Virus record (IMG/VR): IMGVR_UViG_3300045988_181536
Location: 110,314 to 174,313 of that record
Reading direction: 5' to 3' (one strand)
Length of the DNA: 64,000 nt
Source: a virus
Positions within the stretch are counted from its first letter, which is position 1. Each line of letters opens with the position of its first letter. This document shows, piece after piece, positions 8,905-57,200 of this stretch. The notes under the pieces are model-generated. The model was not told the origin of the DNA. It ran no database searches and saw nothing but the letters and a program-made list of their open reading frames with translations. A program made the translations under genes and the position numbers.

Positions 8905-11900
8905 ATGGAAGAACAAGTAAAAACAAAAACCACGGATAATCCGGATCCGTTTACGAATGAGTTTTCCCGACAGATTTGGGAAGTAACCTATAAAACGCAA
9001 AATGAAAAGAGTATTACAGATACGTGGAAACGTGTGGCAAATGCTGTAGCCAATGTAGAAAAGGATGAAGAATCCAAAAGATTTTATGCTGAGGCTTTTT
9101 ATGAGATTTTAAAAGATTTTAAGTTTATACCCGGAGGTCGTATATTGGCCAATGCAGGGGGTAGTTGTAAGAATGTCTCTCTCGTCAACTGTTATCTCTC
9201 ACCTGCTCCCAAATACGACATGGATTCCGTTGAAGGAATTATGGAGGTATTAAAGAACCAGGTTTTAACTTTAAAATCTGAAGGAGGCTGGGGTTTAAAT
9301 TGTAGTTTTATTCGTCCCAGAGGTTCTTATATAGAAGGCATAGGTGCCAGAACCCCCGGTGCTGTAAAGTATTTGGAGCTGTTTGATAAAAGTTCCGAAA
9401 TTATTACGGAAGGTCCAGGAGAGTATTACATAGAGAATAAAGAAAAAACGCCTAAGAATGAAAAGAAGAAAATTCGCAAGGGTGCAATGATGCTTTGTTT
9501 AAGCTGCTGGCATCCTGATATATACGAATTTATTACTGCCAAACAAAAGCCGTTTCATCTAACTAAAATGAATATGTCCGTAAATGTTACCAATGCTTTT
9601 ATGGATATTTTAAATAGAGTTAACGAGCTTGTTAAAAACAATGCTTCGCAGGAAGAAATCGATGCTGTTGATTTTTGGCAATTGAGATTTCCTGATACGG
9701 CTTTTGAAAAGTATAAATCCGAATGGGATGGAGACTTGGATAAATGGGAGAAAAAAGGTTATCCTGTAAAAGTTTATCGTACAGTAAGGGCTACTGATCT
9801 ATGGGAAGCCTTAATGCAGTCTACCAGCAATCGTTCGGAGCCTGGAGTTTTATTTCTCGATAGGGCAAATGAGACACATTGCGCAAATTATATCCCTGAG
9901 TTGCAATTAGTTGGGACAAATCCTTGTCTTACTGGAGATACCAAAGTTGCTGTTGCTGACGGGCGTACAAATGTGACTATTAAAGAGTTGGCCGAAGCTG
10001 GCAGAGATGTTCCGGTGTTAGCTTGTGATAATGCTGGCAATATTGTTACAAAGTTAATGCGTAATCCTCGTATTACAGGCTATAATAAAGATATTTATCG
10101 AGTGACTTTAGATGATGGTAATCATATTGATTGCACGTCTAATCATAAGTTTAGATTGTCTGATGGAACATATAAAGAGGTAAAAGATTTATCAACAGGT
10201 GTAGCTTTGCACACAAATACGTTAAGTGTAGAAGAGTATAAACGTTATTTAGTGCAGGAAGTTTTAAATACGGAAATTACCCCTAATCTTCAGCTTGATT
10301 CCGTACAACAACTGTGTGAAGAAGCAAAGTCTCAGGGTTATGAGGTAAAAATAGATAATAACATAGTTTTGGTTAAGAGGGTTTGTGAGGAATGTGGAAA
10401 AGAACATTTTGTTCCATTTACTCATCGCGAAATTGCGTTTTGTTCTCTGGAATGTTTAAATACCCATTTGAATAAAGAAAAAATCGCTGCCAAAACCACA
10501 AATACTGATTTAGATGTAATATCTGCTGAGGATTGGCCTGTAAGGTTTGTTTCGTCTATTGAATATATAGGCAAACAAGATGTCTATACCGGTACAGTTG
10601 ATGATGTGCATAATTATTGCGTTGGGATGTTTGAAACTGTGAATGAACATGGACATCCAAAATTTTATATACTTAATAATCAGCAGTGCGGAGAGCAGGT
10701 TTTATACAGCGGAGGATGCTGCAACTTAGGATCCATCAATCTTACGGCATTTATAGAGTACGATGAAACTAAACATGCCGCCGTTTTTAACTTTCAGAAG
10801 TTCTCTGATATTGTTCCTTATTGCGTAAGATTCTTGGATAATGTCATAGACATTGCCAATCTGCCTTTGGAAGAATATAAATATATGGCTGAAAGTTATC
10901 GAAGAATCGGGCTTGGTATTACAGGCATAGGCTCTGCTTTAATGATGTTGGGTCTAAAATACGATTCTAAGGAAGCTAAAGACTTTTTAACTAAAGTTTT
11001 TGATGTTTATAATTTCTTAGGGATAAGGGCAAGTATCGCTTTAGCTAAATGTAAAGGTGCGTTTAAAGGATGCAATCCTGCAAAACATGCTGATAATATA
11101 AAATATACGTTTAGACATTTACCGAAGTATATATTGGATGCTTTGCAAAAAGAATTGTTAGAAACTAACGGCATCCGCAATTCAGCCTTGTTCTCAGTCC
11201 AACCGACAGGCAATACAGGGTGTCTAGCCAATAATATTTCAGGCGGTGTGGAACCTGTGTTTCAGTTAGAATACTACAGAATTGTTGGAGTGCCGATTGT
11301 TCCTGAAAGCATAAAAGATAAATGTCCTAGGTTCTGGGAGGGGGATTTTACTCCGAACAATTATTTCAAAGAAGTTAAATACGCAGATTTTACTTACTTG
11401 TCTTACGTAACTGAAGCTGGCCAAGAATATCAGATACATAAAGATAGAGGTCTGTGTGAAAAAGTAAAAATTCGAGATTATGCTTACCAATGGATCTTGG
11501 ATCATAATTTAGAATATCCACAGGAAGTTTTTACAACAGCTATGCAACTACCTGTTGAATCTCATTTGGAAATTCTGAAATTAGTATCTGCACATTTGGA
11601 TTCCGCTGTAAGTAAAACGATAAATGTTGGCAAGGATTACCCTTATGAACAGTTTAAGAATGTTTATTTAGATGCATATAATAGCGGAGTAATAAAAGGA
11701 GTTACGACTTATCGTGAGGGTTCTATGAGTGCAGTATTGCAAACTACGGATTCGAAAGATGACGTAAATCCTACATCTACATCGATTATTCATCCTACTA
11801 TTACTGCTGAGAAACGTCCTGATATATTGCCGTGTAGAGTATTTTTTAGAACGGTAAAAGGAATATCTTATTACTTTATTGTAAGTTTCTTGGAAAATAG

Positions 11901-12351
11901 TCCGTTTGAGATGTTTATTGACATAAATGAAGATAACATTTTTGACGAGGATGGAGAATGGGTTGAGCGCCGTCGCATTATACCCAAGACTGTAAAGGAA
12001 GGAACTTTAAAGAAGTTGGGTAAGGCTACGTTCGAGTTTGTATCTAAAGATGAGAAATTTATATTTAAAATTGTAAAAGCCAATGAGTCTTCAGATAAAG
12101 CCACATTAACAGCCCTTGCTCGTTTGGTGGCTTTGAATTTGCAGTCCGGTGTATCAGTGAAAGAGATAATACATCAGCTATCTAAAACCGAAGGGGATTT
12201 TACTTCAATTGTGAAAGCAATTAACAAAGTATTGTCTCAGTGTGCTGGTAAAGTTGATCTTGGAGAAACATGCCCTGTTTGCGGAGGTAAAGTGTTACGT
12301 GAAGAGGGATGTAAAAAATGCTATGCATGTGGATGGTCTGCATGCGGCTAA
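8905..12351 (+). CDS. ribonucleotide reductase large subunit (class II-like) interrupted by an intein
   Basis: RNR active-site NPCGE motif is split as LVGTNP | CLTGDTKV..(intein)..ILNNQQ | CGEQVLYSGGCCNLGSINL. C-terminal Cys-rich tail CPVCGGKV..CKKCYACGWSACG. Confidence 0.7.
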   Translation: MEEQVKTKTTDNPDPFTNEFSRQIWEVTYKTQNEKSITDTWKRVANAVANVEKDEESKRFYAEAFYEILKDFKFIPGGRILANAGGSCKNVSLVNCYLSPAPKYDMDSVEGIMEVLKNQVLTLKSEGGWGLNCSFIRPRGSYIEGIGARTPGAVKYLELFDKSSEIITEGPGEYYIENKEKTPKNEKKKIRKGAMMLCLSCWHPDIYEFITAKQKPFHLTKMNMSVNVTNAFMDILNRVNELVKNNASQEEIDAVDFWQLRFPDTAFEKYKSEWDGDLDKWEKKGYPVKVYRTVRATDLWEALMQSTSNRSEPGVLFLDRANETHCANYIPELQLVGTNPCLTGDTKVAVADGRTNVTIKELAEAGRDVPVLACDNAGNIVTKLMRNPRITGYNKDIYRVTLDDGNHIDCTSNHKFRLSDGTYKEVKDLSTGVALHTNTLSVEEYKRYLVQEVLNTEITPNLQLDSVQQLCEEAKSQGYEVKIDNNIVLVKRVCEECGKEHFVPFTHREIAFCSLECLNTHLNKEKIAAKTTNTDLDVISAEDWPVRFVSSIEYIGKQDVYTGTVDDVHNYCVGMFETVNEHGHPKFYILNNQQCGEQVLYSGGCCNLGSINLTAFIEYDETKHAAVFNFQKFSDIVPYCVRFLDNVIDIANLPLEEYKYMAESYRRIGLGITGIGSALMMLGLKYDSKEAKDFLTKVFDVYNFLGIRASIALAKCKGAFKGCNPAKHADNIKYTFRHLPKYILDALQKELLETNGIRNSALFSVQPTGNTGCLANNISGGVEPVFQLEYYRIVGVPIVPESIKDKCPRFWEGDFTPNNYFKEVKYADFTYLSYVTEAGQEYQIHKDRGLCEKVKIRDYAYQWILDHNLEYPQEVFTTAMQLPVESHLEILKLVSAHLDSAVSKTINVGKDYPYEQFKNVYLDAYNSGVIKGVTTYREGSMSAVLQTTDSKDDVNPTSTSIIHPTITAEKRPDILPCRVFFRTVKGISYYFIVSFLENSPFEMFIDINEDNIFDEDGEWVERRRIIPKTVKEGTLKKLGKATFEFVSKDEKFIFKIVKANESSDKATLTALARLVALNLQSGVSVKEIIHQLSKTEGDFTSIVKAINKVLSQCAGKVDLGETCPVCGGKVLREEGCKKCYACGWSACG
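9925..10686 (+). other. intein in the RNR gene (about 254 aa)
   Basis: Starts with Cys directly after NP of the NPCGE motif. Host sequence resumes at CGEQ. The last intein residue appears to be Gln rather than Asn, so the exact C-boundary is uncertain. Confidence 0.5.
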
Positions 12352-12364
12352 TTTAAACTTAACA

Positions 12365-12399
12365 AACGACGGGCAAGACTTCCTGCCCGTCGTTTTTAA
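12365..12399 (+). terminator. rho-independent terminator
   Basis: Stem aacgacgggca/tgcccgtcgtt, loop agacttcc, followed by ttttt. Confidence 0.55.
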
Positions 12400-12404
12400 A
12401 AACC

Positions 12405-15400
12405 ATGAGAGAAAGCGAAATTAATTTACCCCCCGTGAATATGGATTTGCCATGTCCTAAATTGGCAGATTTTTGCGGAGATTTATCGTATAAACGTTGT
12501 AAGGATGACTTAACTCCCGAAAACGATAATGTAGTATTTTTAAATGGTGTAGGCAGGTTAAATGCGGATATAATGTTTTTAACTGCGGCGCCATTAAAAG
12601 AGGATGTGGATGCGAGATATTCTACACCTATGCATTTAAAATCGGGTGCCGGTGAAATGTTTCGCGCAATATGTTTGCAAAATGGCATTGATATTGATGA
12701 CTGTTATTTTACGTCATTAATAAAGTACGGAATAAAACAAAAGAATTTAAAAGGTTGTAAAAAGGATATAGATTATTGTTTGCCTTTGCTTCTGGAAGAA
12801 TTTCAGTATTGTCACCCAAAAATTATAGTTTGCGTCGGTACGGAAGCGTGTGACTTTATTTTAAATTATAAAATAAGCGTATCAAAATTGGAAGAGGCGT
12901 GGTTTTTTAGTCAAGAACACAACGCTCATGTGTTTGTAATTAGCAGTATTTATAATGCCTATTATAAGCCTGAATTGTACGATAAATTAGATAAAGAGAT
13001 AGGCATGTTGGCTGACTTTTATGATCATTTTCTACAAGGCAAGCCAATCGAGCAGATAAAGTGTGACTATCAATGTATTTCAACTTATTCACAGTTATCC
13101 AATTTGTTAAATCAGCTTAAGTCTGAAGGTTATAAATTATTTGGAGTTGACTGCGAGTGGGGTAAACAATGTTTTGTAGACGGATATCTTAGATCAATAC
13201 AATTTGCATGGGCTCCAGGCAAGGCAGCTTATATAAACTTTAATAATGAACAAGCCGAATGGGTCTTTGATGCATCAAAAGAATCGGTATGTAAATTATT
13301 GCAAGATTTTTTTAATGACCCTGAAGTGCATTTTGTAGGGCATAACGGAGCGGCTGATGCTCAATGGATGTCAACACATTTGGGACTAAATGTGTATGAC
13401 GGCAAGTTTATTTTTGACACCATGTTTGGTATTCAGACAGCTGATGAATATGCTGATCAAAAGTTGGAAAAATTAGCTGCCAAATACACAGATAAAGGCA
13501 GATATGATATTGATCTGATCTTATGGAAGAAAAATAATAAAGGCGTATCCTTTGATGAAGATGAAGGATATGGACAAGTTCCTTTGGAAATTCTTTACCC
13601 ATATGGTTGTTCGGATGCCGATGTAACTTTAAGATTGTATCCGATTATTAAAGACATGTTAATTAAAGACGGCACTTATGATTATTTCATGAATATTAAG
13701 TTGCCGTTTGTTATTGATGGATTTACCTCCATGTCTATTGCGGGTGTGCCTTTTTGCACTGAGGATGCCAATAAAGCGCGAATAGCTTATCTGGCCGCAG
13801 GCGTAGTCATGCAAAAGTTGTTTATGCAAATGCTTAAAAAAGAGGCATATGATTTGTTTTATACGGAAGTGTCAAAAATTCCGCAGGAAACGCCTGTAGC
13901 GAATATTGCAGAAATTCAAAAGTTTTTTGATGATGAAAGATCTTTTGAAGATATTTTTAATCTGTTAAAAAAACTTTATGGGCGCAAAGCATTGCCTTTA
14001 TTGCCGTTTGCTGAACATTATTACTATGTGGATGCCTTTAATCCCAATTCTGCAGAGCATAAAAAGAAATGGTTGTTTGACGTAAAGAAATACACGCCTA
14101 TTAAAACAACTAAGCCGGAAGAGGGTAATGCAATACCCTGGGAAAGAGTATTAAAAATGTCCCCCGCTAAGCAGAAAAATTATAAGCCTGCTGTGGATAA
14201 AGATACTCTTAAAATATTTGCGGATAAAGGAGATGATTTATGTCTGCATTTATTGCAAATGAATGCAATTAATCAGATAACCAAGAATTTTCTAAAAGGT
14301 GAAGAAGGCGGGCTGCAAAAGTTTTTAACTTCAGATGGAAGGCTGCATTCCAACTTCGTTATGACCGAAAGCTCACGGCCACGATCGTTTAAGCCTAACA
14401 TCTTAAACATACCAAGATATGTTACAGATTACATAGACAAGGGTTTCACGAAAGTATTAAAGTATTTTAATATTACAGATAAATCTGATTTGTCGGAGTT
14501 TAATGAAGATAATTTTAATGAAATCGTAAATTCTTTACGTGAAACTTACGGCATTACCGAAAATATAACGATAAAAGATATGGTGCCTGCACCGTTGCGC
14601 TGGTGCTTTAAAGCGCCTGAAGGGTATTGTTTTGTCGATGCAGACTATGCCACAGCTGAAGTATGGTCGATTGCATATTTGGCAAATGATAAAAAGTTAA
14701 TTTCCACTTTGAATGATCCGGATCCGCAATTTGCATTTAAAAAGATGCCTGATGGTTCGGAAAAACAAGTGCGTATAGCATATTGTGATGACATTGTTGA
14801 ATTTACTGAAGATGCAAAAGATCCTGCACTACTTGTAGATCCTAATGATCCGGATTTGGTGAGAAATAATGACGGGTCTCTAAAGCATCCGAAACAAGAT
14901 GTTCACTGGGTTGCAGTGGAAAATAAATTTATGCTTAACACACCCCGAGAAAAGTTAAACAAGAAGAAGACGAGAGATGCTGCGGGAAAGGTAGCTAATT
15001 TTTGTTCTGGCAAAGAAAATTACGTTTATACTTTAGAGGGTTATAAAAAAGCAAAGTTAATAAAACAAGGAGATATTTTAAAATCAATATCCGGTTTTAC
15101 AAAAACTTTATCTGTTACTGCTTTAAATGAGAGAGACTGCATTAAGATCAGATTAAGTTCCGGATTAGTGGCTACTTATCATAAATATCATAAGCTTAGA
15201 TGCTTTAATGGTACGGAAATGGTCTGGGTAAGAGTTAAAGATATCGATCCAAAAAGGCATAAAGTAGTTACCTTCAATCCGAGTTTTACTGAAGTTATAG
15301 GCACTTTTAATGTTCCAAAAGATTCTTATACGGATTTTTATACAGAATTGAAATGTCGTGAAGGTGATAATACCTATCGCTTGCCTGAGTGGATATTCTC

Positions 15401-16364
15401 TTTAAGTCGTGCTGAGATTTGGAGTATATTGCAACGCTTTTTAGAATTAAACCCCCGAGTCACCGATGCGGTGTGTTATCATTTTCCGTTAAAATTTTGG
15501 AAAAATAATTTAGAATTTATTTCCGATATTGCTTTATTGTTGAATTTTATAGGTTTTCAAACCAAGCTTTCGTTGGAACAAGGCGAGGATGTTTTAGTGG
15601 CTTCGGCTGCTATCGAACCTAATGGGCCTTTGCAAAATATTTATTTTAGTGAAGTTGTTTCTTTGGAACATGTGAAAGAAGATATTGTGGCAATTGAATG
15701 TGAATCCCATGAATATATAGACACTTCAATGAATAGCCATAATTCGATTCCTTATGGTGCAAGTCCTTCTTTGCTGGAACGTAACATTGAAATAGCTTCA
15801 GGTGAAAAACCTGAACCTGGTACGGGACAAAAACTTATTGACGCCTATATGAACACCAAACCGCAAGTTGCAGAATTTTTGGAATGGTGTAAGTCTCTGC
15901 CTGACGGACAAGGGTATTACCAATCGCCTTCGGGATTTAAAAGACATTTTAAAATACCGCCTTTGGATGCTCAAATGTCGGATGATCTTAGAGAAAGTAT
16001 CATAAGTAAACTTCGTCGAGAAGCTTGCAATATAGGATTGCAATCTTTGGTTGCTGACTCTTTAGCAAGGGCCATACCTCCACTAAATGCCAGTTTTAGA
16101 AAGATGAATATGAAGAGCAGAGTAGTAATTCCTTTGTATGACGCTATTTATATTTTATCTCCTTACAACGAAGTCGATTTGGCTGTAAGTATGTTGAAGT
16201 TTTTTATGTCTGAGAATAATTATTGGGACCTAAAAGGCGGTCGCTTGCGTTACAGTATTGATGTCGAAGTTACAAAACGGTGGGGTACAGAACTTTCTGA
16301 AGAAGAACACAAAGAACTAACTGAAGGATTAAAAAACGCTTGCCAGACGTTCAAGCTTGCGTAG
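12405..16364 (+). CDS. family-A DNA polymerase with N-terminal UDG-like domain, 3'-5' exonuclease domain and an intein in motif B
   Basis: N-terminus resembles family-4 UDG but carries TAAPL where GEAPG is expected. Exonuclease motif FGVDCEWG. PolA motif A DYATAEVWSIAYLAND. Motif B KVANF | intein | SIPYGAS (KxxNFGxxYG interrupted). Confidence 0.75.
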   Translation: MRESEINLPPVNMDLPCPKLADFCGDLSYKRCKDDLTPENDNVVFLNGVGRLNADIMFLTAAPLKEDVDARYSTPMHLKSGAGEMFRAICLQNGIDIDDCYFTSLIKYGIKQKNLKGCKKDIDYCLPLLLEEFQYCHPKIIVCVGTEACDFILNYKISVSKLEEAWFFSQEHNAHVFVISSIYNAYYKPELYDKLDKEIGMLADFYDHFLQGKPIEQIKCDYQCISTYSQLSNLLNQLKSEGYKLFGVDCEWGKQCFVDGYLRSIQFAWAPGKAAYINFNNEQAEWVFDASKESVCKLLQDFFNDPEVHFVGHNGAADAQWMSTHLGLNVYDGKFIFDTMFGIQTADEYADQKLEKLAAKYTDKGRYDIDLILWKKNNKGVSFDEDEGYGQVPLEILYPYGCSDADVTLRLYPIIKDMLIKDGTYDYFMNIKLPFVIDGFTSMSIAGVPFCTEDANKARIAYLAAGVVMQKLFMQMLKKEAYDLFYTEVSKIPQETPVANIAEIQKFFDDERSFEDIFNLLKKLYGRKALPLLPFAEHYYYVDAFNPNSAEHKKKWLFDVKKYTPIKTTKPEEGNAIPWERVLKMSPAKQKNYKPAVDKDTLKIFADKGDDLCLHLLQMNAINQITKNFLKGEEGGLQKFLTSDGRLHSNFVMTESSRPRSFKPNILNIPRYVTDYIDKGFTKVLKYFNITDKSDLSEFNEDNFNEIVNSLRETYGITENITIKDMVPAPLRWCFKAPEGYCFVDADYATAEVWSIAYLANDKKLISTLNDPDPQFAFKKMPDGSEKQVRIAYCDDIVEFTEDAKDPALLVDPNDPDLVRNNDGSLKHPKQDVHWVAVENKFMLNTPREKLNKKKTRDAAGKVANFCSGKENYVYTLEGYKKAKLIKQGDILKSISGFTKTLSVTALNERDCIKIRLSSGLVATYHKYHKLRCFNGTEMVWVRVKDIDPKRHKVVTFNPSFTEVIGTFNVPKDSYTDFYTELKCREGDNTYRLPEWIFSLSRAEIWSILQRFLELNPRVTDAVCYHFPLKFWKNNLEFISDIALLLNFIGFQTKLSLEQGEDVLVASAAIEPNGPLQNIYFSEVVSLEHVKEDIVAIECESHEYIDTSMNSHNSIPYGASPSLLERNIEIASGEKPEPGTGQKLIDAYMNTKPQVAEFLEWCKSLPDGQGYYQSPSGFKRHFKIPPLDAQMSDDLRESIISKLRREACNIGLQSLVADSLARAIPPLNASFRKMNMKSRVVIPLYDAIYILSPYNEVDLAVSMLKFFMSENNYWDLKGGRLRYSIDVEVTKRWGTELSEEEHKELTEGLKNACQTFKLA
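15003..15743 (+). other. intein in DNA polymerase motif B (247 aa)
   Basis: Begins CSGKENY right after ANF and ends ..MNSHN followed by S-IPYG. In frame with the host ORF. Confidence 0.6.
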
Positions 16365-24276: not shown

Positions 24277-25056
24277 ATGATTCCTGATGAGGACAAATAT
24301 ACGTTAAATAAAGAGACATACGCTGTTGATGATAGTGATTATGTAAGATCATCTTTGGAAAATAAGGTTCAGGCTGCTTTAAAGGAAAGTTTTCCATTGG
24401 AATACGGTGGTGTACGTTTAGAAGTAAAGAATATAAATATTCCAAAGCTTAAGAGATACACCTTAGGCGAACAGAAAAAGGCTTTACTGCAAAATAAATA
24501 TTTAGCCAATAGTGTTAGAGGAGATTTGTATCTTTATGATGCAAAAACTGGTGAACTCTTAGATGTAGCTCCAGAAAGAACTTTAATGAGAGTTCCGTAT
24601 TATACTGAACGTGGCACATTTATTCATAATGGTAACGAGTACAACACTTTAAGACAAATGAGGCTGCGTCCTGGAGTGTATTCTCGGAGAAAATCAAATG
24701 GCGAATTAGAATCACAGTTTAATGTGGAGAGAGGTACAGGCAACGGATTCAGGGTATCTTTAGACCCGTCATCTGGTATTTATAAATTAAATGTAGGGCA
24801 ATCTAGCTCAAATCTTTACTCAATACTACATGACCTTGGTATACCTGATGAAGAACTAGAATCAGCCTGGGGGCCGGATATTTTAGCACGTAATAAACGT
24901 AGATATGACCCAAGAGCTTTATCCAAAGTTCACAGTAAATTGGTACCGAAGCGCATTTCAAAAGCGACAAACAGGGATGAAATGATTGCTGAATTAAAAG
25001 AGGCATTTGATAATCAGCAAATTGATGAAGAAATTAAATTAAGAAATTTAGGATAA
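24277..25056 (+). CDS. RNA polymerase beta subunit N-terminal fragment
   Basis: TERGTFIHNGNEYNTLRQMRLRPGVYSRR aligns to bacterial beta [28 protein letters not shown] (beta lobe 1). Confidence 0.55.
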   Translation: MIPDEDKYTLNKETYAVDDSDYVRSSLENKVQAALKESFPLEYGGVRLEVKNINIPKLKRYTLGEQKKALLQNKYLANSVRGDLYLYDAKTGELLDVAPERTLMRVPYYTERGTFIHNGNEYNTLRQMRLRPGVYSRRKSNGELESQFNVERGTGNGFRVSLDPSSGIYKLNVGQSSSNLYSILHDLGIPDEELESAWGPDILARNKRRYDPRALSKVHSKLVPKRISKATNRDEMIAELKEAFDNQQIDEEIKLRNLG

Positions 25057-25063
25057 TTTATAC

Positions 25064-26206
25064 ATGTCGTTTAACATTAGTAATTTTAAAAAATTTGCGG
25101 ATTACGCTCCAATCTACATTCCAAAGAACACCGTCACCAAAGATGAAGCAAATGTTTGGGCTCAAGATCCAAATAATGCTAAAATTGTACGAGAATTTCA
25201 GCAAAACGTAGATAATTTGGCAAAAGAAAATTACCTTTCAAATGCTGTCAAAGATAATGAGCTTTTAAAAGTTAATAAAAAGGATAATGGCCTGGTGCGA
25301 ATGGGGAAAAATGTTATTAATTCCTCTGCAAATTTTGCTACAGACTTGTATTATAATGCTCCTAAAGCTTTGAAATATGTGTCTCCAATTGGCGCTATTA
25401 CCTCTAAAGTTATGCAATGGAATAAACCTGATTCGCATGCAAAAGTGCAGCAAATGATGAAGGAACATCCGGAGTTGCGTTATTTTTCATCAGGTCTTAA
25501 TGCCTATAAAGGTTATTACGATCCCAATACTATGGCTCGCAATGCAGCGCAAGATGCAAATAACCTTAAAAATGAAATTGATAACAACGCTCTTAGCGCA
25601 GGACTTACTGCTGCAGCAACTGCAGCTACCTTACCTGTAGGTGGCGCGGGCGGTTTAGTTGCACGAGGTGGTAGTTTAGCCGCTTCCAGAATTGCCGCTC
25701 GAACAGGAAGTAAGGGCTTAGGGAAAACTGTAGATTGGGTTTCTAGAAATCTTTTAGAACCTGGCATTCAATATTCAGTTAACCCTATGGCGGCTGTGGG
25801 AGGTGTGGCTAAATCATTAGTCCCAGGAGGCGCACGTTCTTTATCAAGTCGAGCAGTAGAGGGTGCTTTAGGGGCTTCCATATTGCCATGGGGAAATAAT
25901 TCTGTAGATAATGCGTATAAGACGGATTTTAATTTTAAAACTTTCTTAAAAAATAATCCTGAATTTGCGAATTTATCTGATGATGATCAGGGGCGATTAT
26001 ATCAATATTTGCAAGACTTTGGATTTGAAAACTATATACGCAATAATCCAGAATTGTTAAAACGTATTGAAAATACTCCTGAACAGGATCGAGCGAAGCT
26101 ACTTAACGAGTTACGTGCAAATTATAAAGGAGGGATTCCAAATATAAAGGAGCATGCTGCAGAATATAATGAGTTGCGTAATGCTCTTTTAAATGCCAAT
26201 AGGTAG
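25064..26206 (+). CDS. hypothetical protein with a Gly/Ala-rich low-complexity core
   Basis: 380-aa ORF lying between two beta fragments. The central Ala/Gly-rich stretch is GC-rich at the DNA level (about 25.55-25.86 kb). Confidence 0.35.
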   Translation: MSFNISNFKKFADYAPIYIPKNTVTKDEANVWAQDPNNAKIVREFQQNVDNLAKENYLSNAVKDNELLKVNKKDNGLVRMGKNVINSSANFATDLYYNAPKALKYVSPIGAITSKVMQWNKPDSHAKVQQMMKEHPELRYFSSGLNAYKGYYDPNTMARNAAQDANNLKNEIDNNALSAGLTAAATAATLPVGGAGGLVARGGSLAASRIAARTGSKGLGKTVDWVSRNLLEPGIQYSVNPMAAVGGVAKSLVPGGARSLSSRAVEGALGASILPWGNNSVDNAYKTDFNFKTFLKNNPEFANLSDDDQGRLYQYLQDFGFENYIRNNPELLKRIENTPEQDRAKLLNELRANYKGGIPNIKEHAAEYNELRNALLNANR

Positions 26207-26226
26207 TAAGCAGATTGGTTAATATT

Positions 26227-27372
26227 ATGTTTAAGTTTAACACCCATAAAAAAGCATCTACTTCACCATTTCCGAAAATTCAAGTGGCGGAAATGGACAA
26301 AAATACCCCAAGAGCTTCAGTAGGATTGGATTCGGTTATCAAAGCTACAAAAAAACTTTTAGCGATAAATCGCGGAGATACGGATTCTGACGAAAGAGAT
26401 TCTTTAAGATTTAAAAAGATTTTAGGGCCTGATGATTTAATTGCTGAACGGGTCAGATTGGATGCTGGAAAATTGCGCAATGCTTTAATGTTTAAGCTAA
26501 GCAAGAATCGCAGTTTAAAATTCTTCCCGTCCGGAGCTTTTGATTCTTATGCCACTGGACATATTATAGGTAATCCTTTGTCTTTGCCATCAGAAGAAAT
26601 TAATCCGGTTTATAATCTTGATCAACAATCACGAGTGACGGTTTTTGGCCCCGGTGGAGTTTCATCAGCTGATTTAGTATCTGAAGAGGCGCAAAATGTG
26701 CACCCAAGTCAGTTTGGAGTGATTGATGCCGTGGTGGGCCCTGAATGTTTGGTGTTTAATCCGAGATATGAGATTTTAACTGAGACTGGATTTAAATCTA
26801 TAAAGGATATAACTTTAAAAGATAAAATTGGTTATTGGAAGCGTGACGATAGAATCATAGGTTTTACAGAACCGGATAAGATCATATTGCAAGAATACGA
26901 AGGGAATATTGTTGGCATTGACAATGGAGTAATTTTTCAGGAAACAACACCTGATCACCGTGTTTTAATAACGAATCCGGATTTGGCAAAGGATTTGCAA
27001 TATGAGATTGTTGAAGCAAAAGATCTCATAGAAAATCCTTTAAAAGATATTTATTTATTTTCTGTACAGCAGGATTTATGTAAACAATCTTTAAAAATTG
27101 TGCCTGACAATTGTTATGTAAAACATTTTCATGGTCAAATTTGGTGCTTGAAAATTTCCGGTGGTATGTTTGTTATACGTTATGGTTCAGAAGGAATACC
27201 TTATTGGACTGGTAACTCAGAGAAAATAGGAGTTGACGTTAGGCTAGCTTCTATGACAAGAATTGGTAAAAACGGAAAATTATATACTTTATTAAGGGAT
27301 CGAAAAACCGGTAAAAAGGTTTGGATGACACCTGATGAAATAGAGGACAACATTGTAAGTTTTCCGGTTTAA
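26227..27372 (+). CDS. RNA polymerase beta subunit middle fragment containing a mini-intein
   Basis: VFGPGGVSSADLVSEEAQNVHPSQFGVIDAVVGPE aligns to beta [35 protein letters not shown]. Intein blocks A (CLVFNPRYEILTETG) and B (TPDHRVLIT) follow. After the intein, SEKIGVDVRLAS..RDRKTGKKVWMTPDE aligns to beta NIGLINSLS..YRKVTDGVVTDE. The first ATG is taken at 26227. Confidence 0.65.
   Translation: MFKFNTHKKASTSPFPKIQVAEMDKNTPRASVGLDSVIKATKKLLAINRGDTDSDERDSLRFKKILGPDDLIAERVRLDAGKLRNALMFKLSKNRSLKFFPSGAFDSYATGHIIGNPLSLPSEEINPVYNLDQQSRVTVFGPGGVSSADLVSEEAQNVHPSQFGVIDAVVGPECLVFNPRYEILTETGFKSIKDITLKDKIGYWKRDDRIIGFTEPDKIILQEYEGNIVGIDNGVIFQETTPDHRVLITNPDLAKDLQYEIVEAKDLIENPLKDIYLFSVQQDLCKQSLKIVPDNCYVKHFHGQIWCLKISGGMFVIRYGSEGIPYWTGNSEKIGVDVRLASMTRIGKNGKLYTLLRDRKTGKKVWMTPDEIEDNIVSFPV
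26746..27216 (+). other. mini-intein (157 aa) in the RNAP beta fragment
   Basis: Starts with Cys where the Gly of the conserved TPEG would be. Ends ..IPYWTGN followed by Ser. The terminal pair is Gly-Asn, not the usual His-Asn. Confidence 0.55.
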
Positions 27373-42794: not shown

Positions 42795-44095
42795 ATATTC
42801 TATTTAGTCAACTACTAATCATACAAGCTGATTAGCTTGTAACTAGGTATTACTACCCGCTACAATAGGCTTGTTGACGGAAGCCCGAAAGTTATTTGCT
42901 ATATTGATAGCTGCATTTAAATCTGCATTGCATTCAAATCCACATTTCTTACACTTGAAATGGGATTGTGTAGTTCGATTGCCTTTAACGGTATACCCAC
43001 ATCTACTGCATTTTTGCGATGTATAACGAGCATCAACGTGTTGAACACTACAGCCCTTAGCTAATGCTTTGTATGTTAGGAATTGCTCTAGCTGGAAGAA
43101 ACTCCACGAATTTACTTTAGCCCTTTCGGACTTTCGCAATTTGCTACTACGATCTCTAATACCATCTAGTTTTTCAAGAACTATAGTAGTACCGGGAACG
43201 CACATAGAAACAATATTCTTACTAATACAATGATTCATATCCGTAACGAAACGGTTCTCCTTCATACTTAATGTACGGAGGTGTCTTTTAGCGGATTTAG
43301 AACCCTTGGATTGTAGTTTGGATCTTAAAATAGCATAGCGTTTCTTTACTTGTAGAACATGTTCTCCAGAGAAGATAGTACCATCAGATAGTGTAGCTAT
43401 ATTGACTATGCCTCGATCTATACCGAGTACATTATCATTGGAACATTGCACATCCTCAACCTCCTTCTCAAATATGATGTGTAGGAATAATTTGCCTTTC
43501 TTTAATGAGAGTGTAGCACCTTTCCTACGCCACGAGAAGTATTGTTTAAAGTGGTCTGTTAGATTTACTTTAAATCGTAATCTACCATTCAATGTTAGGA
43601 TAGAAACCTCGAAACGATCGAACCATATATTAAAGGAGTTCTTAGTTAATCTTAAAGCCATTTGTTTGGATTTAGGACATTTGAATTTCTTATGTTTCTT
43701 TCGTTCTAGTTTCGTAGTGGCTTTGATGGCTTCCGCTGCCTGATCCCGAACTTGTGTAGCGAGATCAGCTGGTAGTGAGAATTGTGTTCTACAATAATCA
43801 TAGGTTTGATCGTGAAGCTTTCGTTTATCAAAATTACGATCCTTGAAACCTATTTCACAAATATAGTTATACGCCTCAGTATAGGCTCGAAATGTAGGAA
43901 GTAAATCGGTAGGATTTACGTTCTCTAGCTTAAGCTTTACTGTGCGGAGTAATTTCATTTAATAGTTAATATATTCATATATTAATATAATAATGTCAAC
44001 AACAAATACTTCAAAACACTAAACAATAGAAAGGAGACTTCCGAAATTCCTTGCAATAGACAATCTATTGCGTATCCTTTCGGGACTAACAATGA
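42795..44095 (-). mobile_element. IS200/IS605-family TnpB-only (IS1341-like) element
   Basis: A tnpB ORF is flanked by subterminal hairpins: caagct-gatt-agcttg at about 42808-42833 on the tnpB 3' side and the nested ccgaaa..gcaataga-caa-tctattgc..tttcgg at about 44041-44087 on the 5' side. No terminal inverted repeats, as expected for this family. Ends are approximate. Confidence 0.55.
42843..43958 (-). CDS. tnpB: TnpB (RuvC-like RNA-guided nuclease of the IS605 family)
   Basis: 371 aa. C-terminal zinc finger within the RuvC-III region: CSRCGYTVKGNRTTQSHFKCKKCGFECNADLNAAINIA. Confidence 0.8.
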   Translation of the reverse strand: MKLLRTVKLKLENVNPTDLLPTFRAYTEAYNYICEIGFKDRNFDKRKLHDQTYDYCRTQFSLPADLATQVRDQAAEAIKATTKLERKKHKKFKCPKSKQMALRLTKNSFNIWFDRFEVSILTLNGRLRFKVNLTDHFKQYFSWRRKGATLSLKKGKLFLHIIFEKEVEDVQCSNDNVLGIDRGIVNIATLSDGTIFSGEHVLQVKKRYAILRSKLQSKGSKSAKRHLRTLSMKENRFVTDMNHCISKNIVSMCVPGTTIVLEKLDGIRDRSSKLRKSERAKVNSWSFFQLEQFLTYKALAKGCSVQHVDARYTSQKCSRCGYTVKGNRTTQSHFKCKKCGFECNADLNAAINIANNFRASVNKPIVAGSNT

Positions 44096-49851: not shown

Positions 49852-49865
49852 TAGGGAAGCTTATT

Positions 49866-51424: not shown

Positions 51425-51437
51425 CAAATTAAAAATT

Positions 51438-52445: not shown

Positions 52446-52461
52446 CCCGGAAAGGAAACTT

Positions 52462-52791
52462 ATGGAAAATACCACTGAAAATACAAAATCAAATAATCTT
52501 ATGAACTTTGGTCAAGCGATTGAAGCTCTCAACAGGGGAGAAAAGGTGTCTCGCAAGGGATGGAACGGAAAGGGAATGTATCTCTGGAAGAAGCCGGCTT
52601 TTGAAATCACCCCCGAAATATGCTCCGACCCAAAGCTTAAACAGGCCGTTATCGACAACGGGGGAAAGCTTCTCGGGCTGCCGACAATCTGCATGTACAC
52701 GCATGATTCGACCGGACGCAAGGCGGTTTTGACCGGATGGCTGGCCAGCCAATCGGATATATTCGCCGAAGATTGGGAATTAGTTGATTAA
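52462..52791 (+). CDS. DUF2829-like (Tad2-like) small protein
   Basis: MNFGQAIEALNRGEKVSRKGWNGKGMYLW is characteristic of the DUF2829 family, to which the Thoeris anti-defence protein Tad2 belongs. The gene is conspicuously GC-rich against the AT-rich background. The real start is the ATG at 52462, after an aaggaaa RBS. Confidence 0.5.
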   Translation: MENTTENTKSNNLMNFGQAIEALNRGEKVSRKGWNGKGMYLWKKPAFEITPEICSDPKLKQAVIDNGGKLLGLPTICMYTHDSTGRKAVLTGWLASQSDIFAEDWELVD

Positions 52792-52990
52792 AGATCAAAT
52801 AATCCTTGACGATTTATTTTTCTTAGTGCAGTTTAAAAAGTGAAAAATATTTTATTTTTATACGAGATTTATAGGTTAATAAAATTTTAATATTTTAGTA
52901 TAACTTATTTATGACCGTATATTTATAAAATATTTTCACTTAAAATATTACATATAAGTAAATTAAGCATTAAAAAAACAGATTTTATAT

Positions 52991-53365
52991 ATGCCAAACG
53001 AAACATCAAATACACAAGATTCTGATATAAATGAAGTTACGGATTTTTCTCAAGAATTTTCCGAAGTTGAAGTCGTAAAAGATGATTCTAACGTTGAAGT
53101 AAGTGACAGTGAAATAAAAGAAATTAATGATGAGTTAAAAGAAGCGATTAGTGAAGATCAAGAAGTATTTGAAGAACTTGCTGATGAAGATAAAGAAGAG
53201 TTAAAAGACCCTGATGCTTCAGAGGAAGAATCATCTATTCCTGTAGAAAATAACAGTGATAGTGTAGTAATAAATAAACCTGTAAGTGCATATGATAACG
53301 AATCAAAGTTTCCTTATGCGATTCCTGATGCTACATTAAATACGTGTCCTGCCAAAGGTTATTAA
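52991..53365 (+). CDS. hyperacidic protein (about 40% D/E)
   Basis: 124 aa dominated by E/D/S (EVEVVKDDSNVEVSDSEIKEINDELKEAISEDQEVFEELADEDKEELKD). Preceded by a 190-bp AT-rich promoter-like region and followed by a strong terminator. Confidence 0.45.
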   Translation: MPNETSNTQDSDINEVTDFSQEFSEVEVVKDDSNVEVSDSEIKEINDELKEAISEDQEVFEELADEDKEELKDPDASEEESSIPVENNSDSVVINKPVSAYDNESKFPYAIPDATLNTCPAKGY

Positions 53366-53394
53366 ATAAAACTATATTTTTATATCTATATAAT

Positions 53395-53440
53395 AAACGC
53401 CCATTTAGGTTTATGCCTTTTTGGGCGTTTATTTATTTTA
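53395..53440 (+). terminator. rho-independent terminator
   Basis: Stem aaacgccca/tgggcgttt, loop tttaggtttatgccttt, then atttatttta. Confidence 0.6.
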
Positions 53441-53554
53441 TAAGCGAAAAAATAAACTAAATTGAGGTATATATTATTAAGAAAGAATATTTATCTACAG
53501 CTAGACATTTCGCATATTCTGTGCGAAATGGGAAATTTAGATGTAGATAAATAA

Positions 53555-54076
53555 ATGATTACTATGGAAAAAGTTGTATATGGAAATCCCACAATTGAAG
53601 GCAAAGTGATGGACAACGTAAGCGTCAACCACGACGCTTACGTTGGACCTAACGCAGTCGTCAAGGGAAATGCGTACGTGCGTGATGGTGCACGCATAGA
53701 GGGCAATGCCGTCGTGGATGGCAACGCCGAAATCCACGATGCCGCTACAATAAAGGGAAATGCCGTCGTTGATGGCAACGCCCGCGTGGGTGGGAATTTC
53801 ATCGTGGGCGGCCACGCCCACGTAGGAGGGGAAGCCTCTCTAAGTGGGGAAGGTTCCGTAGGCGGTTTCGCCGACATCAACTCTGACGACGACTACGTCG
53901 TTATACATGGGCTGACCCCCCACCCGTTGACGGTGTACAAATCCTCCGTGTGGGGGTTTGAGGTTTCCATCCAGGGGCAGTGGGAGACATCGATTGAGAA
54001 TTTCCTGGAACTCGAAAGATTTCCAGGAAATGTAAAGAAAATTATCGAGCTCATAGCTCAAAAATGGAAAAAATAA
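53555..54076 (+). CDS. repeat protein with GNAxVxDGxA-type deca/icosapeptide repeats (beta-helix-like), GC-rich gene
   Basis: VKGNAYVRDGARIEGNAVVDGNAEIHDAATIKGNAVVDGNARVGGNFIVGGHAHVGGEASLSGEGSVGG. Tandem repeats of about 30 nt are visible at the DNA level. GC content is far above the flanks. Confidence 0.45.
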   Translation: MITMEKVVYGNPTIEGKVMDNVSVNHDAYVGPNAVVKGNAYVRDGARIEGNAVVDGNAEIHDAATIKGNAVVDGNARVGGNFIVGGHAHVGGEASLSGEGSVGGFADINSDDDYVVIHGLTPHPLTVYKSSVWGFEVSIQGQWETSIENFLELERFPGNVKKIIELIAQKWKK

Positions 54077-54090
54077 AATAGCCCCACAAT

Positions 54091-54130
54091 ACACAACCGG
54101 TGGAAATCCACCGGTTGTGTATTTTTTTTT
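54091..54130 (+). terminator. rho-independent terminator
   Basis: Perfect 13-bp stem acacaaccggtgg/ccaccggttgtgt, loop aaat, then a run of 9 T. Confidence 0.7.
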
Positions 54131-54201
54131 AGCTATAACACCTTGCTCACCTAAAAAATAAATCCTTGAATTTAACTCTTAAATAAGCGAATATACAATA
54201 C

Positions 54202-57200
54202 ATGTCATCTTCGAATATAAACGACTTAAGCGCATCAAATAATCCTAAAGAAATTATGGCTAAAAAAAATAAGCTTATTCCGGTATTAAAACGCGGAGTA
54301 ATAACAGAAGAACCGGATGATATTGAAAAGGTTAGATATGAGTTCGTGTCTCCAAATCAATTCTTTGGCAATACATTAAATTTATTACCAATGCAAAATT
54401 CCGTTACTGCTGCAAGGGCGTTTTATGAGCATAAGTTTATTACTCAAGCCTTGCCTATTAAAGACGGCGAATCCCCTAATGTGCAATCTTTAAAAAATGC
54501 GGATAATAACGAGTCATATGAGGATTATTTAGGCAAAAAAACCGGTGTTATTTCATTGGATGACGACGATAATTCTGCTGATATTTTGGAAGTGACGCCG
54601 GATTATATTAAATATAAAAACGATAAAGGCGAAACTAAGACTAAGAATTTATATAACAATTTTGCCTTTAATCGTAAAACCATGCTTACTAATTATCCTT
54701 TGGTAAAAGCGGGTGACAAAATAAGCAGGGATAAATCCAAAAATCCGCCTATTTTGGCTAAAACCAACTTTACTGATAATAACGGCACTTTAAATATGGG
54801 CCTAAATGCCAGAGTGGGATTTGTGCCGTATAAGGGATGGTCCATGGATGATGCCGTGGTGATATCGGAAGATTTTGCTAAAAAGATGACTTCGCAACAT
54901 ATGTATCAATATAGCGAAGCTAATGACAGCAAGGATATAAAAACAGGCAAAGACCATTTTAAAGCTTTTTATCCGGATAAGTTTAACAAGGAACAGATGG
55001 ATAAAATAGACGATAATGGCGTTATTAAAGCAGGCACTGTGGTGAATCCCGGTGATCCATTAATCGTATCCACACGTTCCAGGGTTGTGTCCTCTAATGA
55101 TGCTAATTTAGGTAGATTATCCAAGTATTTAAAAACAACGCGATTGGACTCATCCCAAGTATGGGATCATAATACTCCGGGTGTCGTAACTGATGTTGTC
55201 AAAACAAATGACGGATATAAGGTTAACGTTGAGACTTTTGCGCCTATGCAAGAGGGGGATAAGATGTGCTATCACCCCGATACTGAAGTATTCACGGAAG
55301 ACGGATGGAAGAATATAACTGAGGTTAAATTGGGCGACAAAGTTGTTGCTTTAACCACAGATTTATCAGGAAAACCGAGCGGATATAAGCTTTCAGATGT
55401 AATAGAAATACATAAATATAAATTAAATAATGATACTTTATATGGTTATGAAGATGAGCATGTTGCTCAGTTAGTTACTGGAAATCATAATTGCGCTATT
55501 AATTGTTTAGACAAGTTGACCTATGAAACTGCAAATCTTTTATCTTATTCCTCAAAAGATGAACAGTTTATTTCTGTAAGTCCTGATTTTGATTTAAATA
55601 ATGGGAATGATTTAAAGTATACGTTTATAAATAAAAACAATGTATATAAAGCATATGATTATTCCGGAGAGGTAATAGGCATAGGAGTTAACGCTTTTTC
55701 GCATATTATTTTAACGAGATATCATAATAAACCTATATTCTCGGGCAACTCAAGTCGCTCCGGTAATAAGTTAACTGTATCCCATATTTTACCGCAAAAT
55801 GAAATGCCGAGAACAAAAGACGGCAAACCGTTAGATGTATTATTTAATCAGTTGGGTTTGGTGTCTCGAGTTAATGCCAATATGATGTATGAAGCTATGC
55901 TTGGGAAGGTTGCCGAGAAAACGGGTAAAAAATATAAATTGCCGACCTTTAATAAAAATAGCGAAAAATGGTATGATTTTGTCGAAAACGAATTAAAGAA
56001 AAATAACTTGTCTGATGTCGAACCCGTTTATGATCCAGTAATTGATAGAGACTTAGACCAACCTATTGCTGTAGGCAATGCTTATTTTCTTAAACTGCAT
56101 CATACGTCTGACTCCAAACTTTCCTCAAGGGGTCAGGGCATTTATGACCAAAATGAAATGCCTGTAAAGGGCGGGGAAGAAGGCATGAAAAGTAAAAGAC
56201 ACAGCAACTTGGAGAGTAATGCGATTTTATCTTCCGGTGCATATAACGTAATTAAAGACGCAATACATTTAAGGGGACAACGCAATGATGATTATTGGCG
56301 TAAGGTTCGTATGGGGCAGACGCCATCATTAGCCAAAAAATCGCCTTTTATCTGGGATAAGTATATTGCTTTAATGCAAGGCGCAGGAATAAATGCAAAA
56401 CGCGCTGATAATGGCGATTCGATTCAAGCCACACCTTTTACAGATAAGGACTTTGCATTATTTAACCCTGTTGAAATAAAAAATGACGGCATTATAGACT
56501 TTAAAAATATGAAACCTATTTCCGGCGGATTATTTGATCCTGCTTTAACTGTCGGCAACAGATGGGGAAAAATTACATTAGATAGGCCTTATCCTAATCC
56601 TGCATTTGAAGATACGATAATATCTTTATTAGGACTTAAAAGGTCTACGTTTAATGATATATTAGCCGGAAAAGAATCATTGCTTAAATACGGCACCGGA
56701 ACCAAGGCTATATATAATGCATTGTCGGATATAGACATAGACAAAGATTTAGAACAGGCAAAACAAGATTTTAAATATGGACCAAAATCTAAAAAGCAAC
56801 AGGCACTAAATCGTATAATGGCTTTAGACGGATTAAAAAATAACCGTATGAAGCCTGAAGAATTTATGATTACGAAGGTGCCTGTTATACCACCTAAATT
56901 CAGGCCTTATTCTGTTATGGGTAAAGATACTTTCTTGCCTGGGGATGCAAACGAGCTATATCAAGATGTAATTAACATGGCGCATACCCAGGGCGAGATA
57001 TTGCAAGAATTAGGCCCCGATGAAGCAGATAAAAATGTGCCTAATGTTTATAAATCTTTAAAAGCTTTGTATGGTTACGGAGAGCCTGCAAGTCGCAAAT
57101 TAAAGCAAAGAGGAGTATCAGGATTTTTACAAAAACTTATCGGGGGAACTTCTAAGTTTTCGCAATGGAATAGGAATATCATAAGCAAGCCCGTGGATTT

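Follow-up and report, generated by a model that had tools for sequence, protein, structure and literature searches.

Replication and transcription genes of an uncultured phage are probably interrupted by four contiguous inteins and by a fifth, split intein with a 12-residue N-terminal fragment

The window analysed here is a stretch of 64,000 nucleotides of the IMG/VR virus record IMGVR_UViG_3300045988_181536 (positions 110,314 to 174,313), and coordinates given below without a contig name refer to this window. Its source is an uncultured phage of about 170 kb and 35% G+C, a value that also applies to the window itself (35%), and the window codes for a DnaB-like helicase, a primase-like protein, a ribonucleotide reductase (RNR), a family A DNA polymerase (PolA), a RecA-like protein, ThyX and the pieces of a multisubunit RNA polymerase (RNAP). 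The replication and transcription genes of this phage likely contain four contiguous inteins and, in addition, a fifth intein that is split within the RNAP subunit β'. The original prediction, which was made from the sequence alone, had listed four inteins at 9925-10686, 15003-15743, 26746-27216 and 55267-55749; translation agrees to the residue with these positions, with the Cys start of each insertion and with the described termini, and the proposed location in catalytic motifs of RNR, PolA and the RNAP subunit β is borne out. All four were found; however, the list was incomplete, as the split intein encoded at 57544-57579 and 62947-63657 was missing from it. This split β' intein, whose N-terminal fragment (IntN) consists of only 12 residues, lies just outside the reported span and is the most interesting item of the set.

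Position, boundaries, family membership and conservation of the elements, as well as the fold of the C-terminal fragment (IntC) of the split intein, were observed directly. All five elements have Cys as residue 1; the residue that follows the intein (+1) is Cys in RNR, Ser in PolA and in the two RNAP β inteins B1 and B2, and Thr in the split intein. The C-terminal residue is Asn in the PolA intein, B1, B2 and the split intein and Gln in the RNR intein, and no endonuclease domain is present in B1, B2 and the window IntC. In all likelihood, the four contiguous inteins are excised from the translated proteins through the standard class 1 pathway, in which Cys1 would form a thioester, the Cys or Ser at +1 would take over the N-extein and the last intein residue would cyclise, thereby releasing the intein. 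In the RNR intein, the terminal Gln takes the place of Asn and would presumably form a glutarimide. These four inteins are of known kinds with conserved and precedented termini, and no new chemistry is called for. In the case of the split intein, IntN may dock onto IntC and supply the first strands that its HINT fold lacks, and trans-splicing would join DFDGD to TMNVHVP, thereby rebuilding the active-site barrel. The replication and transcription genes of this phage seem to be heavily colonised by protein-level mobile elements; its polymerase, taken as β and the N-terminal part of β', is distributed over at least four open reading frames (ORFs) across 40 kb with three inteins, one of which is split, and would be an extreme example of how far a core enzyme can depend on repair after translation.

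The inteins, their host genes and the RNAP pieces all lie on the plus strand. The N-terminal half of the split intein is found at the end of a fused ORF (54202-57582), which codes for the C-terminal part of β and the N-terminal part of β' (Pfam Rpb2_6, Rpb1_1 and Rpb1_2) and stops 12 residues past the catalytic DFDGD. This ORF ends ...GLGADFDGD-CQWGHVFLLTKS-TGA (57544-57582), where the 12 residues of IntN occupy 57544-57579 and the TGA stop codon 57580-57582. The second half is encoded 5.3 kb away by an ORF with its own ATG (62947-63915), which starts with an IntC of 237 residues (62947-63657). IntC has a HINT fold, carries TDDDP without a His at block B and ends ...DGYDLTVPGYETFINYSGVVLSN (...GVVLSN), which is followed by TMNVHVPALPEAQAE..., the β' sequence that comes after DFDGD. 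This β' continuation (63658-63915) begins with the +1 Thr at 63658-63660 and corresponds to positions 447-533 of the rpoC model TIGR02386. The intein C-terminal model TIGR01443 matches IntC with 21 bits at a cut-off of 15.6, and homology to rpoC sets in with the next residue. Read-through of the TGA codon behind IntN was considered and rejected: a second in-frame stop codon follows 14 codons further on, and the stop codons of the relatives are located at differing positions.

Six or seven IMG/VR contigs, 90-173 kb long and all from metagenome 3300045988, represent the nearest database relatives of the phage. The split layout is present in seven of the seven sister contigs, in which IntN has 12-13 residues (CQWGHVF...) and the halves are separated by gaps of ~1 to ~6.5 kb. 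In contig L031, which comes from a different sample and whose IntC is 63% identical to that of the window, IntN reads CQWGHVFIAVKEA and the halves are only 142 nt apart, with no gene between them. The distant relatives L028, L030 and L033 share this layout, with the halves flanking a DUF723 ORF; inspection of the 10 kb around IntC did not reveal the N-terminal half of β' in L026, L027 or L029. About 47 stand-alone IntC-β' ORFs of 305-400 aa with 30-97% identity were recovered by a profile search, many of which have precomputed Intein_splicing matches, and in an alignment of 48 IntC sequences H77, D96, D98, R100, D218, S236, N237 and T238 are invariant. An AF2 model of IntC, built with the alignment of homologues, reached a pLDDT of 89 and a pTM of 0.86, and the best 50 matches of this model in a Foldseek search against the PDB were all inteins or HINT domains (TFIIB, Aes123 PolB1, RadA), with E-values down to 2.7e-6. 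Different inteins are located at or beside the same β' site in P0079 (913 aa), P0021, P0049, P0059, P0111 and P0136; one such polymerase has DFDGD↓SVSGDTWV... (the arrow marks the junction here and below), with Ser as residue 1, and ends after 31 residues, and several have DFDGN↓C..., with Asn in the place of the third catalytic Asp. The DNA that codes for DFDGD and IntN (57500-57582) has a G+C content of 54%, compared to 40% in the 500 bases before it and an overall value of 35%, which, as pure speculation, might reflect a conserved endonuclease target.

The two parts of the β' intein are encoded by different ORFs, in each of which the intein part is joined to a part of the host protein; together with an IntN of no more than 37 residues, these are the hallmarks of an atypical split intein of the S1 type. 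As in published S1-type inteins, a short N-terminal peptide completes a large IntC, and the element is found in phage-like metagenomic DNA (PMC13014065; PMC10189870). Published natural IntN fragments have 15-37 residues, and that of PolB16 OarG, with 15 residues, has been called the shortest (PMC13014065; PMC10189870). The β' intein differs from these in the length of IntN, which is 12 residues in the window and 12-15 in the family, and in its host, RNAP β' at DFDGD. Further differences are an invariant Asp at block B position 10, a penultimate Ser and a residue 1 that varies across the family. Searches of the literature did not turn up any natural split intein in the RNA polymerase of a phage. 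A natural IntN of 12-13 residues is below the published record of 15 residues, and short IntN fragments are sought by protein chemists for semisynthesis.

The active-site residues of the split family are unusual and raise a mechanistic question that can be tested at the bench. Residue 1 is Cys, Ala, Leu or Gln, with Cys only in the subclade of the window phage, whereas Gln2 is conserved. In L028 (5429-8269), L030 (7329-8270) and L033 (891-1766), the residue after DFDGD is Ala or Leu, not Cys, and the IntN of this DUF723-associated subclade reads AQLAHIQLLRKIK, LQLAYIQLLRRKKEV or AQFAYVQVLRRKTSI. P0069 and P0022 (L025) are contiguous relatives in giant β-β' ORFs, which bear a LAGLIDADG domain with two motifs and start with QQLNS... 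or QQIGS... after DFDGD. Recoding of stop codons was tried as an explanation for the Gln-Gln start of P0069 and was rejected for this sequence, as both residues are encoded by CAA and the ORF is open throughout under the standard code. Throughout the split family, block B position 10 and block F position 4 are Asp, no Cys is conserved, and the +1 Thr, the terminal Asn and, at -1, the catalytic Asp of DFDGD are invariant. Class 2 inteins are known only with Cys at +1, and class 3 inteins need a Cys in block F. For the window intein, with Cys1, Asn and Thr+1, class 1 trans-splicing would be chemically possible. As judged from their residues, the members with Ala1, Leu1 or Gln1 fit no known splicing class, and they would either use an undescribed cleavage between Asp and the following residue or not ligate at all. 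If they do ligate, direct attack by Thr+1 or help from the Asp at -1 can be imagined, both of which are speculation; such members would represent a new mechanistic class with the shortest natural IntN known. That the β' element belongs to an intein family which activates the N-terminal junction without any of the known devices, and which is split after only 12-15 residues, may be considered, although we regard it as rather doubtful.

Named phages are only remotely related: the fused β-β' protein gp206 of Salmonella phage Arash (1525 aa) and its counterpart in Vibrio phage D69 show ~30% identity. The single Arash gene of 1525 codons corresponds to four ORFs that are spread across 40 kb of the window. 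The N-terminal fragment of β (24277-25056) is a separate ORF equivalent to residues 18-259 of gp206, and the second fragment (26215-27372), the host of B1, corresponds to residues 241-419 and 413-468 (spanning 241-468), the intein being absent in Arash. The fused β-β' ORF corresponds to residues 493-1439 and the ORF at 62947-63915 to gp206 from residue 1426 onward. The pieces are separated by an unrelated ORF of 380 aa (25064-26206) and then by 27 kb of other genes. When the RNAP pieces are spliced in silico, all three junctions align without gaps to the intein-less proteins of Arash and D69: GPE↓SEKIGVD aligns with TPE↓SSSAGLD at the B1 junction, GDKM↓SSRSGNK with GDKV↓TGLHGNK at the B2 junction and ADFDGD↓TMNVHVP with ADYDGD↓ALSMYLP at the junction of the split intein. 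These gapless alignments and, for RNR, an intein-less allele described below fix the boundaries. Further split inteins at the other two breaks in β were considered and rejected, as these breaks lack intein residues and the flanking pieces, when aligned to gp206, overlap or meet loosely.

B1 has 157 residues (26746-27216; VVGPE↓CLVFN...YWTGN↓SEKIG) and is inserted at the equivalent of the TPEG site (GPE↓S), and B2 has 161 residues (55267-55749; EGDKM↓CYHPD...IFSGN↓SSRSGNK). Both start with Cys and are followed by Ser; block B is TPDH followed by Arg72 in B1, which also has Cys134 in block F, and TGNH in B2. The two mini-inteins are 28% identical to each other and remain below the curated Pfam and NCBIfam cut-offs. 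A profile of B1 and B2 was used to define a family, named GN here for its Gly-Asn end, as the matches among 1.84 billion cluster representatives: 1575 proteins were found at E<=1e-3 and 110 at E<=1e-10, mostly very long proteins with several domain matches each. Six of these proteins were scanned with Pfam; four have Rpb2 domains, two of them together with Rpb1, and two gave no match. Among the domain matches with a scorable C-terminal end, all 71 have Gly at the penultimate position, a count that is slightly biased by the profile having been built from two GN sequences, and the last residue is Asn in 70 of 71; the +1 residue is Ser in 60, Cys in 8 and Thr in 3. Three insertion sites recur, namely (S/T)PE↓C...GN↓S.K.G.D, the site of B1; GDK.↓C...GN↓S.R.G.K, the site of B2, which includes GDKF↓...↓SxRHGQKG of the eukaryote and giant-virus type; and DKIH↓C...GN↓SR..GP in the largest RNAP subunit. 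The sites in β had been described as uncommon insertion points, but the PE↓ site accounts for 17 and the GDKx↓ site for 62 domain matches among the top 150 representatives, and these sites are widespread in polymerases of metagenomic phages and giant viruses. Yet no RNAP inteins were found in the GenBank phage records searched by tblastn with B1, which returned weak matches to inteins in a methylase, NAMPT and RNR β only, and a word-indexed protein search with B1, in a database that represents this phage poorly, gave a single fragment.

In an alignment of 36 members of the GN family, C1, T12, G15, T68, H71, G156 and N157 are invariant, and the block-F Cys is conserved in at least 90% of the sequences. 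The family is characterised by Cys1, VTPxHR in block B, YxGxVYCxxVP in block F, an end of W-(T/S/C)-G-N followed by Ser, Cys or Thr, and RNAP β or β' as host, and B1 shows every one of these features (R72, C134, WTGN). In sister contigs, diverged B1 alleles are 69-70% identical compared to 87-90% for the exteins, with open reading frames and all key residues kept, and diverged B2 alleles are 50% identical compared to 82-85% for the exteins, again with open frames and all key residues; the other B2 allele, of 170-174 aa (L009, L010, L031), retains the Arg that follows the block B His as well as the Cys of block F. Thus, the odd termini do not point to unusual chemistry or degeneration, as had been suggested: the Gly is found in all 71 scorable ends and is kept in diverged alleles, and the Gln of the RNR intein is conserved and precedented (PMC4031507). 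The Gly-Asn end is a conserved and probably required trait of the family and not a sign of decay. When single sequences of the PolA insert, B1 and B2 were compared to PDB sequences, the matches were marginal only (gp41-1, 0.43; AceL NrdHF, 0.04; PI-MtuI, 2). With the 36-member profile, AceL NrdHF-1-1 was matched over nearly the full length at E=9.5e-13, followed by Spl DnaX, Mja KlbA, hedgehog and PI-MtuI. Comparison to intein profiles recovers the RNR intein with curated models and, via the family profile, links B1 and B2 to solved inteins, whereas the PolA insert has no curated match.

The closest solved relative, AceL NrdHF-1-1 (PDB 6zgq), has a TGN end, an Arg behind the block B His and a Cys in block F, as does B1. 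In contrast to the contiguous B1 and B2 with their Cys1, it is canonically split (98+48 aa), starts with Ala1 and follows the class 3 route; B2, unlike AceL NrdHF, has neither the Arg nor the block-F Cys. In AceL NrdHF, Arg69 contacts the C-terminal scissile carbonyl, and the variant G145H is dead, as the introduced His clashes with Arg69, which follows the block B His (PMC7891396). In the B1/B2 family, the Arg beside the block B His probably substitutes for the penultimate His, as in the related AceL NrdHF. Since the Gly-Asn end is conserved in the family and G145H kills AceL NrdHF, a change of GN to HN is therefore likelier to be harmful than helpful. Gly-Asn ends have been noted before in inteins of the second RNAP subunit of fungi, algae and giant viruses (Goodwin et al. 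2006; PMC1635734). Among others, the Pno RPA2 and Cst/Sas RPB2-b inteins resemble B1 and B2 in their location in fork- and hybrid-binding regions of β/RPB2 and in their Gly-Asn or TGN ends, and insertions of the sequence type GDKF↓...TGN↓S(A/N)RHGQKG, known from eukaryotes and giant viruses, were recovered by the GN family search. The inteins of Goodwin et al. reside in nuclear and giant-virus genes and many of them carry LAGLIDADG domains, whereas B1 and B2 are endonuclease-free and interrupt a bacteriophage polymerase (PMC1635734). A very large family of Gly-Asn mini-inteins on RNAP subunits of phages and giant viruses has been missed almost entirely by Pfam and NCBIfam, and because the models miss it, polymerase genes are routinely mis-sized and mis-annotated.

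The RNR large subunit gene (8905-12351) matches Pfam Ribonuc_red_lgC with 295 bits, in addition to lgN and TSCPD; due to its NPCGE active site and the C-terminal TSCPD domain, the enzyme appears to be class II-like. Its intein of 254 residues (9925-10686; TNP↓CLTGD...ILNNQQ↓CGEQ) has Cys1, TSNH in block B, a C-terminal Gln and Cys at +1, and it is the only one of the four contiguous inserts that passes curated models (Pfam Intein_splicing, 46 bits; TIGR01445, 48.5 bits). An allele without intein, with an uninterrupted LVGTNPCGEQ, is present in the sister contigs L022 and L023, which fixes the boundaries. The 254-residue intein is also present in L018, L019 and L021, and L020 has a version of 486 residues with an HNH_3 domain. 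Since L020 holds the full HNH version, the window intein is a deletion derivative; it has probably shrunk from a homing intein with HNH domain, of which the intact form persists in a sister phage. In the window, the HNH domain itself is gone, and only a zinc-ribbon remnant of the lost region, CxxC-x16-CxxC (10384-10455), is left, which gives weak treble-clef matches and in an alignment corresponds to the C-terminal portion of the endonuclease insert in L020. Every copy of the RNR intein ends in Gln, mostly as NNQQ and as NNKQ in L021, whose RNR is ~79% identical to that of the window; this conservation argues for selection on the terminal Gln. Gln-terminal inteins are known to splice in the RNR of Chilo iridescent virus (CIV) and in PolII of Pyrococcus abyssi (Pab PolII), and the CIV intein splices better with Gln than with Asn (PMC4031507). 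The window intein resembles both in its Gln end and in the absence of a penultimate His, and the CIV host protein is also an RNR (PMC4031507); in contrast to the CIV case, its host is a class II-like phage RNR with the insertion site NP↓CGE. At the NP↓CGE site, Thermus phage P23-45_stolb1 has an intein that ends SGN↓C and the 735-kb megaphage LR756501 an HNH intein that ends KN↓C, suggesting from the sequences that the penultimate His is generally dispensable at this site. A second RNR intein of 395 residues with a LAGLIDADG domain, which ends THN↓C, is present in L018 (5286-6470) at SLVN↓CYLSP; this site is empty in the window RNR (between 9189 and 9190, codons 95 and 96).

The PolA gene (12405-16364) codes for an N-terminal UDG-like domain, a 3'-5' exonuclease and a family A DNA polymerase (Pfam UDG, DNA_pol_A_exo1 and DNA_pol_A). 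Its motif B is interrupted by an insert of 247 residues (15003-15743; KVANF↓CSGKE...NSHN↓SIPYG) with Cys1, His63 in block B, Asp227 and His236 in block F and Ser at +1. The motif B consensus of family A polymerases is RxxAKxxNFGxxYG, and judged against it, removal of the insert restores motif B as ...RDAAGKVANF-SIPYG..., which follows the pattern RxxAxKxxNF-S-xxYG. The same point is occupied by an insert in all six relatives. Two alleles exist, one of 247 and one of 237 residues, which are 33-35% identical within almost identical polymerase flanks, and both alleles keep C1, G54, H63-K-L-R, D227-x-x-A-I-E-C-x-x-H236-x-Y-I-D and S-H-N followed by Ser. A block B of the form TxxH had been reported for all four inteins; this is correct for the RNR intein (TSNH), B1 (TPDH) and B2 (TGNH), but not for the PolA insert, in which H63 (KYHKL) is aligned and the Thr position is occupied by His or Lys. 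When the PolA profile was trimmed of its central insert, hhalign aligned it to five inteins of the RNR site with a probability of 78% (P=1.8e-5), with the block B His and block F in register; the best match to a solved intein is gp41-1 (E=0.04), also in register. The ~110 extra residues within the insert contain no nuclease family or motif recognised by Pfam. Whether the two larger inteins retain a homing-endonuclease domain had been posed as a question; no such domain was detected in either, the RNR copy having lost its HNH domain. On the strength of its sequence, the PolA insert is very probably an intein, although it is the weakest case of the five; it may be a divergent HN-ending intein with a decayed insert of endonuclease size. 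A word-indexed protein search with the PolA intein alignment, in the database that represents this phage poorly, gave nothing.

Several points weigh against the reading that all five elements are functional inteins, and they give room to other explanations. The splicing of each element and its chemistry are what we infer from the observations above. In the split intein, the penultimate residue is Ser instead of His, an invariant Asp replaces the block B His, and the Ala, Leu or Gln at residue 1 in other branches cannot form the first thioester or ester, and therefore class 1 splicing cannot be general for the split family. It is unlikely, but conceivable, that β' has merely been broken by the insertion of endonuclease and insertion sequence (IS) elements, leaving either a pseudogene or two unligated halves with IntC as a docking or self-cleaving module. 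Such a scenario would agree with the mobile DNA in the gap, where a TnpB element, ORFs resembling endonucleases and a shortened ligase gene are located, with the missing block B His and the residues at position 1 in other branches, and with the fact that the phage RNAP is already coded in several unligated pieces. However, the break lies exactly at DFDGD↓xM in the double-psi barrel, whereas the other breaks are found where Arash and D69 align loosely. Furthermore, 48 sequences, some of them no more than 30% identical, all keep IntC, the terminal Asn and the +1 Thr in intact ORFs, the layout persists at gaps of 142 nt, 1 kb or more than 10 kb, and the window copy itself, with Cys1, Asn and Thr+1, is chemically capable of canonical trans-splicing.

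The window allele of B2 (161 aa; the same in L011 and L013) has Asn in place of the family Arg after the block B His and Gly in place of the block-F Cys, B1 and B2 fail the curated cut-offs, and both evolve faster than their exteins (50-70% versus 82-90% identity), as would be expected if the GN insertions, or at least the window B2, were decaying HINT remnants that no longer splice and are tolerated as lineage-specific domains. We consider this highly improbable, as B1 and B2 lie inside the TPEG fork loop and the active-centre motif GDKxxxRHGNKG, where a domain of ~160 residues is hard to square with function; the family, with its more than 1500 representatives, invariably has Cys1, the Thr and His of block B, the Gly-Asn end and a nucleophile at +1, the window allele of B2 is intact in two more contigs, and good splicing is known from the nearest relative of solved structure, which likewise ends in TGN (PMC7891396). 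A different question is whether B1 and much of the GN family splice in a class 3-like manner, in which the block-F Cys instead of Cys1 would form the first branched thioester. AceL NrdHF, the nearest of the solved inteins, has been proven to belong to class 3; it likewise ends in TGN and carries a Cys in block F, and this Cys, C134 in B1, is present in at least 90% of the GN alignment. Class 3 inteins, however, lack a nucleophile at position 1, as with Ala1 of AceL NrdHF (PMC7891396). Their WCT triplet consists of Trp at B:12, Cys at F:4 and Thr at G:5. In the GN family Cys1 is invariant, the Trp of the WCT triplet is missing, and the window B2 is maintained without any block-F Cys; B1 has C134 and T155, though together with Cys1 and with Val at B:12, and B2 has Cys1 and no Cys at F:4. 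A class 3-like route is thus quite unlikely, and because Cys1 is invariant, the residues favour class 1 chemistry for the GN family. For PolA, no allele without the insert exists among the relatives, the insert has neither a curated Pfam or NCBIfam match nor a significant match to PDB sequences (gp41-1 at E=0.04 being the best), hhalign gave a probability of only 0.3-1.6% against the GN family (0.3% at full length), and the single-sequence AF2 model was unusable (pLDDT 38). The 247 residues could accordingly be a lineage-specific insertion of the fingers domain that starts with Cys and ends with His-Asn by chance. This is very unlikely, since the insert splits the invariant NF↓G of motif B and C1...SHN↓S is kept in all six relatives; alleles of 34% identity in near-identical flanks are typical of a mobile element and not of a structural domain, and the block B His and block F (D-x8-H) fall in register with bona fide RNR inteins.

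The gap between the split halves of β' begins with a free-standing ORF of 478 residues (57614-59050, plus strand), which according to Pfam contains DUF7487 and a Mom-like C-terminus and is a candidate homing endonuclease. A 99% identical copy is present at the same place in L011 and L013, and the C-terminal tails of the DUF723 ORFs of ~565 residues between the halves in L028, L030 and L033 resemble that of the DUF7487 ORF by eye. A second small ORF (59082-59690, plus strand) matches DUF559, which has a Vsr-like endonuclease fold (Pfam, E=1e-5). The β' locus matches the layout of the 'fractured genes' of Dassa et al. 2009, in which a free-standing endonuclease-like gene lies between split halves, an endonuclease role being presumed here. 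These authors described 26 loci in genes for DNA synthesis and repair, split at the canonical position, with no RNA polymerase among them (PMC2677866). Unlike in those loci, the intervening ORF is of the DUF7487/DUF723 type and neither GIY-YIG nor of their Vsr-like family, though the DUF559 ORF with its Vsr fold adjoins, and the gap has since been enlarged by other genes and a TnpB element. The gene of an NAD-dependent DNA ligase in the gap (59695-60306) is shortened to the first 198 of 636 codons and abuts a TnpB gene of the IS605 family (60298-61497, minus strand); L007 and L011 have an intact gene of 636 codons. A match to the Rfam abiF RNA motif (61612-61649; 46 bits at a gathering score of 37) is located just upstream of this TnpB gene.

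Several minor observations concern other parts of the window. In L023 (9746-10750), PolA is interrupted by ~1.1 kb of DNA with a DUF559 endonuclease-like ORF at a position equivalent to about 14378 (MTESSR↓PRSFKPN), where the window has no insertion. An Rfam scan of the window matched only tRNA and the abiF motif and revealed no group I or group II intron. A second TnpB gene (OrfB_IS605 / Cas12f-like TNB) is located at 42843-43958 on the minus strand, and the tRNA gene at 1023-1094 was matched with 65 bits.

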